Positions 58,137 to 63,253 of a stretch of DNA of 64,000 nucleotides are shown one piece after another. This DNA comes from Escherichia coli. GTDB taxonomy: Bacteria; Pseudomonadota; Gammaproteobacteria; Enterobacterales; Enterobacteriaceae. The translations under genes and the position numbers were made by a program. The notes beneath the pieces were generated by a model, which saw nothing but the letters and a program-made list of their open reading frames with translations, had not been told where the DNA came from and searched no databases. The stretch lies in NCBI RefSeq assembly GCF_003018255.1, contig NZ_CP027440.1; one strand, 5' to 3'. Each line of letters begins with the position of its first letter. Positions within the stretch are counted from its first letter, which is position 1.

Positions 58137-59105
58137 TTATGCGAGAACCAAATCCCCCTGCGGATGGCAGGAGCAGGCCAGTACGTAACCTTCAGCGATT
58201 TCGGCGTCGGTCAGCGTCATTGTGCTGCTCACCGTATATTCACCGGAAACCACTTTCGTCTTACAGCAGCCGCAAACACCTGCGCGGCAGGCGGCGACAA
58301 CCGGAACGTTATTGCTTTCCAGCGCCTCCAGTAGCGTGGTGCCAACCGGGGCGTAAAATTCTCGTGCCGGTTGCAGTTTGGTGAATTTCAGACCGCTGGT
58401 CGCCGCTTCCGCTACTGGGGTGAAGAATTTCTCTTTAAAGAAACGCGTCACGCCGAGCGCTTTCACTTCCTGCTCTACCCAATCCATATATGGAGCAGGG
58501 CCACAGGTCATCACGGTACGTGAGGCTAAATCAGGGACACCTGCCAGCAGTTCGCGAGTGAGACGACCAGCGATAAAGCCTTCGGTAACGTTATTTTCCG
58601 CCACCAGCGTTACCGGATAGTTACGCCACTCATCGGCGAAAATCACATCCTGCGGCGTACGCACGTTGTAGATCACCTGCACATCGGCCTGTGGACGGTT
58701 CTTCGCCAGCCAGCGACGCATCGACATAATCGGCGTAACGCCGCAGCCTGCCGCCAGCAACAGGAATTTATCTTCTGCTTTATCATCGCAGGTAAATTCC
58801 CCCATCGCGTCCGAAAGCCAGAGATAATCACCGCGTTTTACATCGCGCGTCAGCCACCGGGAGCCGACACCGTCATCAATCCGCCGCACAGTCAGGGTGA
58901 TGTATTCACTCACGCCTGGCGTGGAGGAAATGGTGTAAGCACGCAGCGTTTCCGCTGAGTTACGCACGCTGACCAGTGCATATTGCCCGGCGCGATATGG
59001 GTAGTAATCGTGGCAAATCAGGGAAATCGTCCACACATCCGGCGTTTCTTGCGTAATGTGATGAACCTGCATCCGCCACGGGCATTGATTCGTTGGCATC
59101 GTCAT
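58137..59105 (-). CDS. hcr: NADH oxidoreductase for the hybrid-cluster protein (FNR-like FAD/NAD domains plus 2Fe-2S)
   Basis: About 322-aa ORF; C-terminal 2Fe-2S Cys motif (CRAGVCGCC...C); start may be 59105 or 59111. Confidence 0.85.
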   Translation of the reverse strand: MTMPTNQCPWRMQVHHITQETPDVWTISLICHDYYPYRAGQYALVSVRNSAETLRAYTISSTPGVSEYITLTVRRIDDGVGSRWLTRDVKRGDYLWLSDAMGEFTCDDKAEDKFLLLAAGCGVTPIMSMRRWLAKNRPQADVQVIYNVRTPQDVIFADEWRNYPVTLVAENNVTEGFIAGRLTRELLAGVPDLASRTVMTCGPAPYMDWVEQEVKALGVTRFFKEKFFTPVAEAATSGLKFTKLQPAREFYAPVGTTLLEALESNNVPVVAACRAGVCGCCKTKVVSGEYTVSSTMTLTDAEIAEGYVLACSCHPQGDLVLA

Positions 59106-59116
59106 CGACAAACTCC

Positions 59117-60769
59117 TTACGCGCTCAACAGTTGCTTCATGTCTTCTTCAACAGTGGTGATAGAACGCAGGCCGAATTTCTCGTTCAGCACCGCCAGCAG
59201 GTCTGGTGTCAGGAAACCAGGTGCAGTCGGGCCGGTGACGATATTTTTCACACCCAGAGAAAGCAGCGTCAGCAGAATGACAATCGCTTTCTGTTCAAAC
59301 CAGGAGAGCACCAGCGACAGCGGCAGATCGTTGACTCCGCAGCCCAGTTTCTCTGCCAGCGTTACCGCCAGAATAATTGCTGAGTAAGCATCGTTACACT
59401 GACCAGCATCTACCAGACGCGGCAGACCTTCGATATCGCCAAACTCAAGTTTATTAAAGCGATATTTACCGCAAGCGAGGGTCAGGATCAGGCAGTCATC
59501 CGGCACGCTGGTGGCGAAATCGGTGAAGTAGTGACGCTCGCCGCGTGCGCCGTCACAGCCGCCAAGCAGGAAGATATGACGCAGTTTTTCACGGCTCACC
59601 AGATCAATCAGCGTATCGGCTGCGCCAAGCAGTGTCTGGCGACCAAAGCCCACGGTGATCAGGTGCGGAATTTCGCTGTACGGGAAGCCCGCCATCTGTT
59701 GCGCCTGGGCGATGACCGCAGAGAAATCTTCGCCATCCAGATGACGCACACCCGGCCAGCCAACGATGCTGCGGGTCCAGATACGATCGTCATAAGCGCC
59801 TACGGTTGGGTCGATGATGCAGTTCGAGGTCATCACGATGGGGCCAGGGAAACGAGCGAACTCCACTTGCTGATTCTGCCAGCCGCTGCCGTAGTTACCG
59901 ACCAGATGCTTGAATTTACGCAGCTCCGGGTAGCCATGCGCAGGCAGCATTTCACCGTGGGTGTAGACATTAACGCCCGTGCCTTCGGTCTGTTCCAGCA
60001 GGTTGTAGAGATCTTTGAGATCGTGACCGGAAATCAGAATGCATTTACCTGCCGTCGCTTTGACGTTGACCTGGGTTGGGGTCGGGTGACCGTATTTACT
60101 GGTTTCGCCTGCATCCAGAATGCTCATCACTTTGAAGTTCATCTGGCCGATTTCCATTGAACACTCAAGAAGCGCGTTCATATCGGCAGGCCAGGTCCCC
60201 AGCCACGCCATGATTTTATGGTACTGGGCATAAATATCGTTGTCGTATTGACCGAGAACATGCGCGTGTTCCATATAGGCCGCCGCACCTTTCAGGCCAT
60301 ACAGGCACAGTAGACGCAGGCCGAGAATGTTTTCGCCAATCGCCGCTTTATCTTTGTTAGGGGTAAATTCTGCTGCCTGACGTTGCAGCTCGCCGAGATC
60401 GTCGCTCACCAGTTGCAGGTCAGCCATCGGGTTATCGACGCGGGCGTTGGCATCTACAGCCAGGCATTGTGCTTTCAGCGCCTCGCGCAGGGCAATCGCT
60501 TCACGAGCGTAGCCGACAATACGCGGAGAATCGAAGTTAACGTTGGTCAGGGTTGAGAAAAAGGCACGTGGCGCAAAGCTGTCTACATCGTGGTTGATGA
60601 TGCCGTATTCACGTGCTTTCACTGCCCAGGCCGAAAGCCCTTGCAGCGCCGCGATGAGTAAATCCTGAAGGTCAGAGGTTTCCGCCGTTTTACCACACAT
60701 CCCCTGCGCGTATGAGCAGCCGTTTCCTGCCGGAGTACGGATAGTTTGTTCACATTGCACACAAAACAT
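59117..60769 (-). CDS. hcp: Hybrid-cluster protein (hydroxylamine reductase)
   Basis: N-terminal Cys cluster MFCVQCEQT...C; 550 aa. Confidence 0.9.
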
Positions 60770-60783
60770 GATCACACCTTTTA

Positions 60784-60826
60784 AAGTTATATTTAATATA
60801 CATGTTTAAGGTTAAGACGCTTAACG
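60784..60826. promoter_or_regulatory. Palindromic elements in the hcp promoter region (NsrR-like AT-rich inverted repeat plus GTTAAG-acg-CTTAAC)
   Basis: Minus-strand AACATGTATATTAAATATAACTT resembles the NsrR consensus; adjacent perfect 6-3-6 palindrome. Confidence 0.4.
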
Positions 60827-60912
60827 CGGGGATAAAAGAGATTTTTAATGCAACTTTAAGGGAGATTGATTTAGCGCAATTTTGGCGGCAGAGATCTACC
60901 GCCAGAGAGGTA

Positions 60913-61812
60913 TTATGCAGAGAAAAAGGCGATGAGAATCGGCACTAACAGACTAAGAATAAAACCGTGAACAATCGCCGCCGGGACCATATCCAGCCCG
61001 CCTGTACGTTGAAGAACGGGCAGGGTGAAATCCATCGACGTCGCACCGCATAAGCCCAGTGCAGTAGAGCGGCTACGGCGAATCAGCCCAGGGATTAACA
61101 TAATAGCAATCAGCTCACGGGCCAGATCATTAAAAAACGCCGCGCTCCCGATTACCGGACCAAAAGATTCGGTCAATAAAATACCGGAAAGAGAATACCA
61201 GCCGAAACCGGAGGCCATTGCCAGCGCGGTATTGATGGGAAGATCAAGAATAAAGGCGTTAATTAAACCACCAATTAATGAACTGGCAACCACCACCACG
61301 GCGACAATCATTCCCCGGCGATTAAGGACAATCTGCTTTAAGGTCATGCCATTATTGCGCAACTGAATACCGACGAGGAAAAGTAGCAGAATTAAGGTGT
61401 ATTCACTGGCTTCGGTCGCGTGTTGTAAGAAAGCCAGTCCACTCAGACCAATGGCAAAACCAATCACTACTACGCCGCACAGTTTTAGCGACTCCAGCGC
61501 CATCGCAATACGCGACGGGAGTTTTTCTTGATGATGGTGGTTGCGCCATGGCAGGCCGCGCTCCAGCCACATCAGGGCGGCAATATTACACAGTAAAATA
61601 ACGGTAATACTGACGGCAGAATAATGCAGAATTGCCAACAAGTTACTGGCGAGGTTATCGAGAAACGCCAGACTGATACCCATAAAAAAGAGAATAAGGT
61701 AAACCATCCAACTTAATAGCTGATTAATAACTCTTAATGCAGCTTTTTGGCGAAGCGGAATGAGGTAACCCACAATCAGGGGAACCAGAATGATTAACAG
61801 CCCAGAAAACAT
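60913..61812 (-). CDS. ybjE: Inner membrane exporter (LysO-type)
   Basis: About 299-aa multi-TM ORF (start MFSGLLIILVPLIVGYL). Confidence 0.8.
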   Translation of the reverse strand: MFSGLLIILVPLIVGYLIPLRQKAALRVINQLLSWMVYLILFFMGISLAFLDNLASNLLAILHYSAVSITVILLCNIAALMWLERGLPWRNHHHQEKLPSRIAMALESLKLCGVVVIGFAIGLSGLAFLQHATEASEYTLILLLFLVGIQLRNNGMTLKQIVLNRRGMIVAVVVVASSLIGGLINAFILDLPINTALAMASGFGWYSLSGILLTESFGPVIGSAAFFNDLARELIAIMLIPGLIRRSRSTALGLCGATSMDFTLPVLQRTGGLDMVPAAIVHGFILSLLVPILIAFFSA

Positions 61813-62132
61813 GAAAAACCAGTCCTTGCAAAGAAGATTCGAAATGCGCGATGACACACTACTGAAAGCGGAAGGACGAGTAAAGTTGCAATTAAAAGGA
61901 AATGTTATGCATCAGAGGGGGATTTTTAATTCTATATGAGTGTTTAGCATTGTTGCGCTCCTTTCATGTGCAATGCCATATAAAGCCACTGGCGCAGGGA
62001 GCGGCCAGTTGCCGCCGCTCCCTGCCCCCCCGGCCTTCGGGGAACGCCTCGGCGATTTTAACGCCACCAACACCCGTGCGGTTTGTAACGTCGAAGATAA
62101 AACCACCAGGGCAGACAACATGCCAATGCTAA

Positions 62133-62828: not shown

Positions 62829-63253
62829 ATCCACCTCAATTAAAAATTGACCCTGTGAAAAATATGGTCGTTTTATAGGGTCGTCGTAAAAAAGTGACGA
62901 CGGAAATAATGCGCGGCTATTTTAAAAACGAAGGCAAGTCATTCACCAGATAAATAAATCCAGTAAATTTGATTTAAGGCAACAGCGGGTTGCCCCATAT
63001 AGTCATTTGTCTGATTGACAGTGTAGTGCAAGCGAAAGATTTAATCCTTTAGGCGTAATAAAAAATAATTTATCATGCTAATTATTTGATTTTGTTGTTT
63101 TTGCAGACTTATCAGCAAGAGGGAGTATAACGCGATTATTCGCTCATTTTTCAGACATTTGCCATGCTTAAATGTGATGTCATCACGTATTAGCATGGCC
63201 TTTCCCGTTATACTGCCAGCGTAAAGGATAAGTCACATATTTCTGGAGGGGAT

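Follow-up and report, generated by a model that had tools for sequence, protein, structure and literature searches.

The region between lysO and hcp in the Escherichia coli sequence analyzed here (the window, a stretch of 64,000 nucleotides to which all coordinates refer) very probably carries an activator-dependent sigma-70 promoter of hcp-hcr whose sites have already been mapped, and in which a perfect 6-3-6 palindrome is not a separate operator. The palindrome is best explained as the -10 hexamer combined with incidental complementarity in the promoter spacer, and is unsupported as an operator. The interval 60770-60912 is the well-studied hcp-hcr regulatory region, and its FNR and NsrR sites have already been published. 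Positions, motif scores, conservation, and chance levels were computed here, and in vivo occupancy by FNR and NsrR, the transcription start site, and the dependence on NsrR and NarL/NarP were taken from the literature.

The lysO-hcp intergenic region is 143 bp long (60770-60912), and both flanking genes are on the minus strand. Downstream lies hcp (59117-60769, minus strand), which encodes the hybrid cluster protein, or hydroxylamine reductase, and was identified from the ORF list, its translation, and the RefSeq annotation of an identical stretch; the ORF list and the translation place its ATG at 60769. The second gene of the operon, hcr (58137-59105, minus strand), encodes an NADH oxidoreductase and was mapped from the RefSeq annotation of the identical stretch. 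Upstream of hcp, on the same strand, RefSeq annotates lysO (ybjE; 60913-61812), encoding an L-lysine exporter, with the stop codon TAA at 60913-60915. The Shine-Dalgarno sequence of hcp, AAGGTG (60775-60780, minus strand), was read directly from the DNA and sits in a block, AAGGTGTGA, that is at least 90% conserved among 79 species. The interval 60400-61300 is 100% identical to that of several B2-type strains, including ATCC 11775, and the stretch was found in 5424 of 5426 complete E. coli genomes.

For the comparative analysis, hcp loci were collected from 80 Enterobacteriaceae genomes, and 78 of these were aligned with the window, yielding 79 sequences that cover 180 bp upstream and 30 bp of the coding sequence of hcp. 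Conservation was measured as the mean information content, in bits per position, of this alignment. NsrR sites were scored with a symmetric, 23-bp matrix derived from nine other published NsrR 11-1-11 sites, with the hcp site excluded. Chance levels for palindromes were obtained from dinucleotide-preserving shuffles of the 143-bp region and from real 143-bp tiles of the window.

Transcription of hcp starts at a T on the minus strand, at 60800, which was mapped experimentally as the T in AAACATG-T-ATATT (Rodionov et al. 2005, Figure S1, PMC1274295). With the start at 60800, the centre of the FNR site computes to -72.5, in agreement with PMC3688515. The distance to the mapped start, together with conservation, points to TAACCT (60809-60814, minus strand) as the likely -10 hexamer: T1, A2, C5, and T6 show little or no variation among the 79 species, in which the variants TAATCT and TACCCT also occur, and three of the six positions (T1, A2, and T6) match the -10 consensus. 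At a spacing of 16-17 bp from TAACCT, a weak putative -35 region, TTTTAT or TTTATC (60831-60837, minus strand), matches TTGACA at two to three of six positions and coincides with a conserved CTTTT block, whose distance to TAACCT is free of indels in all 79 species. Between this block and TAACCT the sequence varies freely at constant length across the same species, a combination that is the signature of a promoter spacer. On conservation and spacing, we infer these to be the exact -10 and -35 hexamers. Both are weak, so that the promoter would need an activator, and a scan of 60600-61100 for sigma-70 promoter and terminator consensus sequences returned no match, as expected for a weak activator-dependent promoter. 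The promoter elements and the NsrR sites were reportedly mapped experimentally by Filenko et al. 2007 (J Bacteriol) and Chismon et al. 2010 (Biochem J), who are also said to have defined the hexamers by mutation and to have placed NarL/NarP at -104.5.

In the ChIP data of Myers et al. 2013 (PMC3688515), a sigma-70 peak is absent at hcp-hcr, and dependence on sigma-E is cited. A sigma-E promoter for hcp was considered and rejected, given that the region contains no GGAACTT-N15-17-TCAAA-like match; hcp goes unmentioned in the main text of the paper cited for this dependence.

A natural disruption of the core promoter was observed in E. coli O169:H41 strain 2014EL-1345-2 (NZ_CP024223.1), in which IS421, an IS4-like element, occupies the hcp -35 region (locus L082, 2590-3935). 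The insertion point corresponds approximately to 60828-60838 of the window and is marked by an 11-bp target duplication, CCTTTTATCCC; as a result, about 1.3 kb separates the FNR and NarL sites from the -10 hexamer and the NsrR operator. This was the one split match in 30 among the matches listed (5424 genomes matched).

The original prediction quoted three strings, an AT-rich repeat, a perfect palindrome, and an FNR-like motif, all of which are present as described. Its suggestion that the palindrome is a second operator, by contrast, is left unsupported by the chance-level symmetry of the palindrome, the poor conservation of its left arm, its overlap with the -10 hexamer, and the confinement of palindromy to Escherichia. 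A repeat search locates the palindrome, GTTAAG-cgt-CTTAAC, at 60811-60825 (-11 to -25), 4 nt upstream of the AT-rich NsrR repeat, with the right arm overlapping the -10 hexamer TAACCT and the left arm constituting promoter spacer. In the 79-species alignment, the FNR site is the most conserved element of the intergenic region (1.95 bits per position), followed by the NsrR repeat (1.83), the -10 hexamer TAACCT (1.72), the right arm CTTAAC (1.52), the NarL-type site (1.40), an NsrR-like half-site at -51 (1.06), the centre of the palindrome (0.99), and the left arm GTTAAG (60820-60825), which, at 0.46 bits per position, shows less conservation than any other 6-mer between lysO and hcp. The five 6-mers with the lowest values all map to 60820-60829, a segment made up of the left arm and the adjoining 4 nt on its upstream side. 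The right arm owes its conservation to the -10 hexamer that it contains. The whole stretch resembles an ordinary sigma-70 spacer with its -10 element, fixed in length and, across the 79 species, free in sequence except for the -10 hexamer, and its symmetry appears incidental.

Counts of complementary arm pairs at the aligned columns agree with this explanation: all six pairs are complementary in E. coli and five in E. whittamii, but at most three in the other 77 species, 57 of which show none or one. The seven-species alignment published in PMC1274295 displays the same pattern at the palindrome columns. The single change in E. whittamii, from CTTAAC to CTTAAT, breaks the palindrome and converts TAACCT to TAATCT, which is the better -10 hexamer and a variant common to 23 species. 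Within E. coli, the palindrome is invariant in five phylogroup-diverse strains, an observation that, with about six polymorphic sites in the region, carries no statistical weight.

Symmetry of this kind is also common by chance. The 64-kb window contains 248 perfect 6-N(0-10)-6 palindromes, or 0.55 per 143 bp, and at least one was present in 27% of the shuffled sequences and in 31% of the real 143-bp tiles. When the spacer was fixed at 3, a perfect 6-bp palindrome appeared in 3.9% of the shuffles, a value obtained for a spacer length chosen post hoc. A search of the 64-kb window for further copies of GTTAAG-N3-CTTAAC, with 2 mismatches allowed, found none beyond chance, and the NsrR matrix produced no scoring half-site within 60807-60830. 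Folding of 60760-60830 indicated no significant RNA structure at the palindrome (z = -0.19). Readings of GTTAAGCGTCTTAAC as a Fis, ArcA, MqsA, or LysR-type T-N11-A site were inspected by eye and rejected for want of a convincing fit.

The AT-rich repeat next to the palindrome is the NsrR operator of hcp and is already established as such. It is an 11-1-11 inverted repeat, AACATGTATAT-t-AAATATAACTT (60784-60806, minus strand), that spans -6 to +17, overlaps the hcp start site, and abuts the -10 hexamer; the minus strand from 60806 to 60784 reads AACATGTATATtAAATATAACTT (also written AACATGTATATTAAATATAACTT), and the plus strand from 60784 to 60806 reads AAGTTATATTTAATATACATGTT. Scored with the NsrR matrix, it reaches 25.8 bits and ranks first among the approximately 64,000 positions of the window, against 16.2 bits for the next best position and a background mean of -22.8 (sd 8.2), and its two halves rank 2 and 4 among the 127,980 half-site scores of the window; the NsrR-like repeat is thus far above chance. 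In the 79 Enterobacteriaceae the repeat is near-invariant, with substitutions only at the central positions or between T and C at ATG(T/C)AT, the latter toward the consensus. The site was predicted by comparative genomics as early as 2005 (Rodionov et al., PMC1274295). Mehta et al. 2015 (PMC5320621) place an NsrR ChIP-seq peak between hcp and ybjE in CFT073, its summit lying 22 bp from the hcp start codon on the upstream side; among the 11-1-11 sites of the CFT073 genome, the 23-mer AAGTTATATTTAATATACATGTT, the same as in the window, ranks second; and nitrate induces hcp 44-fold.

NsrR is an NO-sensing, [4Fe-4S]-containing member of the Rrf2 family, with E. coli operators at ytfE, hmp, ygbA, and hcp. 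The repeat analyzed here is the very NsrR site published for hcp and shares the properties of these operators: each half matches AAnATGCATTT at 8 of 11 positions, and the repeat lies across the transcription start of an operon for NO detoxification. It differs from the other operators in nothing material, being only slightly AT-richer (ATGTAT and ATATAA in place of ATGCAT), and the hcp region additionally contains a single half-site at -51. In the original prediction, the repeat was a plausible NsrR-type operator and the motif TTGAT-N4-CGCAA a partial FNR-like site, with exact assignments described as uncertain. The first proposal is borne out by the top matrix rank, the conservation, and the identical 23-mer under the CFT073 ChIP-seq peak (PMC5320621), and the second by a centre at -72.5 that equals the published FNR ChIP position (PMC3688515) and by near-invariance in the 79 species; the stated uncertainty is therefore outdated for both NsrR (ChIP-seq, PMC5320621) and FNR (ChIP, PMC3688515).

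The half-site at -51, AAGTTGCATTA (60846-60856, minus strand), lies between the FNR site and the -35 region and was not mentioned in the original prediction. It ranks 20 among the 127,980 half-site scores in the window and is moderately conserved across genera. Its tenth position is T in the window and in CE10 and G in a K-12-like strain, O157:H7, and strain 137. In PMC5320621, the list of possible NsrR motifs for hcp has only three entries, AAGTTATATTT, AACATGTATAT, and AAGTTGCATTA. The half-site may serve NsrR as a secondary site or, alternatively, provide an A/T-rich contact region for alpha-CTD.

The second-best match to the NsrR matrix in the window, AAGTTGCAATTAAAAGGAAATGT (61883-61905; 16.2 bits), contains one good half-site and is situated 71-93 nt upstream of the lysO start codon. 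The parts of the CFT073 ChIP-seq tables examined (PMC5320621) contain no separate peak for this site.

Three other readings of the palindrome were weighed against the explanation as a -10 hexamer with a fortuitously complementary spacer. An Escherichia-specific operator for a dimeric regulator, which would cover the -10 hexamer and thereby repress hcp, would account for the perfect 6-bp arms and for the overlap with the core promoter, a frequent position for repressors, as well as for the invariance of the sequence in five diverse E. coli strains, its near-retention in E. whittamii, and the 3.9% frequency among shuffles at a spacer of 3. However, it would place one operator arm in the least conserved 6-mer of the region, with three or fewer of six pairs complementary in 77 of the 78 other species, and the family-wise chance of such a palindrome is 27-31%. 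Moreover, the window holds no second copy beyond chance even when 2 mismatches are allowed, the hcp promoter literature examined reports no regulator that binds the palindrome, and the sole change in E. whittamii breaks the symmetry and improves the -10 hexamer. We accord this reading only a slim chance, and a slimmer one to its evolutionary elaboration, in which the palindrome would be a recently evolved, Escherichia-specific operator that adds lineage-specific repression of hcp-hcr atop the control by FNR, NsrR, and NarL/NarP.

The palindrome lies 4 nt from the NsrR operator, and a single 11-bp half-site can suffice for NsrR (Partridge et al. 2009, cited in PMC5320621), which would be compatible with an extended or second NsrR site, such that NsrR covers -25 to +17. 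Yet the ranked half-sites of the intergenic region start at 60782-60796, 60834-60846, and 60862, with none in 60807-60830; GTTAAG and CTTAAC do not resemble AAnATGCATTT; and the palindrome is not among the three possible hcp NsrR motifs listed in PMC5320621. An extended NsrR site is accordingly most improbable. The stacked palindromes might otherwise act in RNA, as a hairpin, an attenuator, or an element sequestering the Shine-Dalgarno sequence, in hcp transcripts or in read-through transcripts from lysO, and an imperfect repeat at 60776-60812 indeed pairs the -10 region (ACCTT) with the Shine-Dalgarno region (AAGGT). The start site, however, lies downstream of the palindrome and of half the NsrR repeat; the z-scores of the folds are -0.19 for 60760-60830 and +0.30 for the native 5'UTR; and no Rfam match was found, leaving a role in RNA with a practically negligible probability. 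The preferred reading remains that of a -10 hexamer whose right-arm sequence is matched by accident in the spacer.

Farther upstream, the FNR site, TTGCG-ctaa-ATCAA, or TTGCGctaaATCAA (60866-60879, minus strand), is centred at -72.5, a class I position, and reads TTGAT-ttag-CGCAA on the plus strand. It matches TTGAT-N4-ATCAA at eight of ten positions; at 2 mismatches, the window contains 48 FNR-like matches versus about 34 expected, so that the sequence alone is unremarkable. The site is identical in 69 of the 79 species and carries one substitution in each of the remaining 10. Myers et al. 2013 (PMC3688515) class hcp-hcr as directly activated by FNR and give -72.5 as the position of its FNR ChIP peak. 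The arrangement is similar to that of class I promoters, with a motif of the TTGAT-N4-ATCAA family upstream of a weak core promoter and anaerobic activation, and differs from that of most FNR promoters (class II, -41.5) in its location farther upstream, at -72.5, and in the degeneracy of one half (TTGCG).

The original prediction mentioned neither of two further features at the lysO end of the region, a NarL/NarP-type 7-2-7 motif and a stem-loop at the 3' end of lysO. The motif, TACCTCT-ct-GGCGGTA (60897-60912, minus strand; centre -104.5), abuts the lysO stop codon; its right heptamer accounts for the 2 mismatches to TACYYMT-N2-AKRRGTA, and its left heptamer is a perfect fit. The window contains seven NarL-type matches at 2 mismatches versus 2.4 expected. 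Variation in the left heptamer stays inside TACYYMT in most of the 79 species. The motif has the same arrangement as NarL/NarP heptamer pairs but its right heptamer, GGCGGTA, doubles as the left arm of the lysO hairpin, which could equally explain the conservation of GGCGGTA. The site at -104.5 reportedly makes only a modest contribution. Induction of the hcp promoter by nitrate and nitrite is reported to depend on NarL/NarP (PMC1274295).

RNA folding places the GC-rich stem-loop, UGGCGGUAG-loop-CUGCCGCCA (60883-60904, minus strand), directly after the lysO stop codon, with a free energy of -16.5 kcal/mol and z = -3.95. Across the 79 species, 92% of the cells are paired, with exchange among U-G, U-A, and C-G at one pair. 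The stem-loop is followed by AAAAUU, without a U-tract, and the consensus scan calls no canonical terminator here; the structure is probably the 3' hairpin of the lysO mRNA. Another GC-rich inverted repeat, GGGCAGGGAGCGGCGGCAACTGGCCGCTCCCTGCGCC (61990-62045, minus strand), was observed in the aqpZ-lysO intergenic region and probably represents either the terminator of aqpZ or a REP-like element; the only Rfam match at 61990-62045 is at chance level (E = 0.78). Upstream of aqpZ, an FNR-like sequence, TTGATTTAAGGCAA (62969-62982), and a NarL-like sequence, TAATCCTTTAGGCGTA (63042-63057), were noted about 70 bp apart, each with 2 mismatches and within the chance expectation for single matches.

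Taken together, the sites suggest the following scheme for the regulation of hcp-hcr. Transcription starts at 60800 from a core promoter that is probably composed of the weak TAACCT and the weak TTTTAT or TTTATC, for which an activator would be required. Under anaerobiosis, FNR bound to TTGCG-N4-ATCAA at -72.5 activates from a class I position, and the NarL/NarP-type 7-2-7 site at -104.5 may supply the nitrate/nitrite input. The [4Fe-4S] form of NsrR, bound to the 11-1-11 repeat from -6 to +17, would block initiation, given that the repeat covers the start site and borders the -10 hexamer; the mode of repression is thus likely to be steric occlusion. Nitric oxide nitrosylates the NsrR cluster, upon which NsrR leaves the DNA and hcp-hcr is induced. 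The left arm of the palindrome, in this scheme, would be freely evolving spacer that became complementary to the right arm by accident in the Escherichia lineage.

The promoter of hcp-hcr, a standard model, is in wide use as a reporter of cytoplasmic NO and is routinely employed as an NsrR/NO reporter (PMC9052748), so that the finding matters little beyond annotation. In an AT-rich promoter, a perfect inverted repeat of 6 bp is no evidence of an operator. The useful result is a negative one: the palindrome can be set aside, and the effort of its mutagenesis saved.
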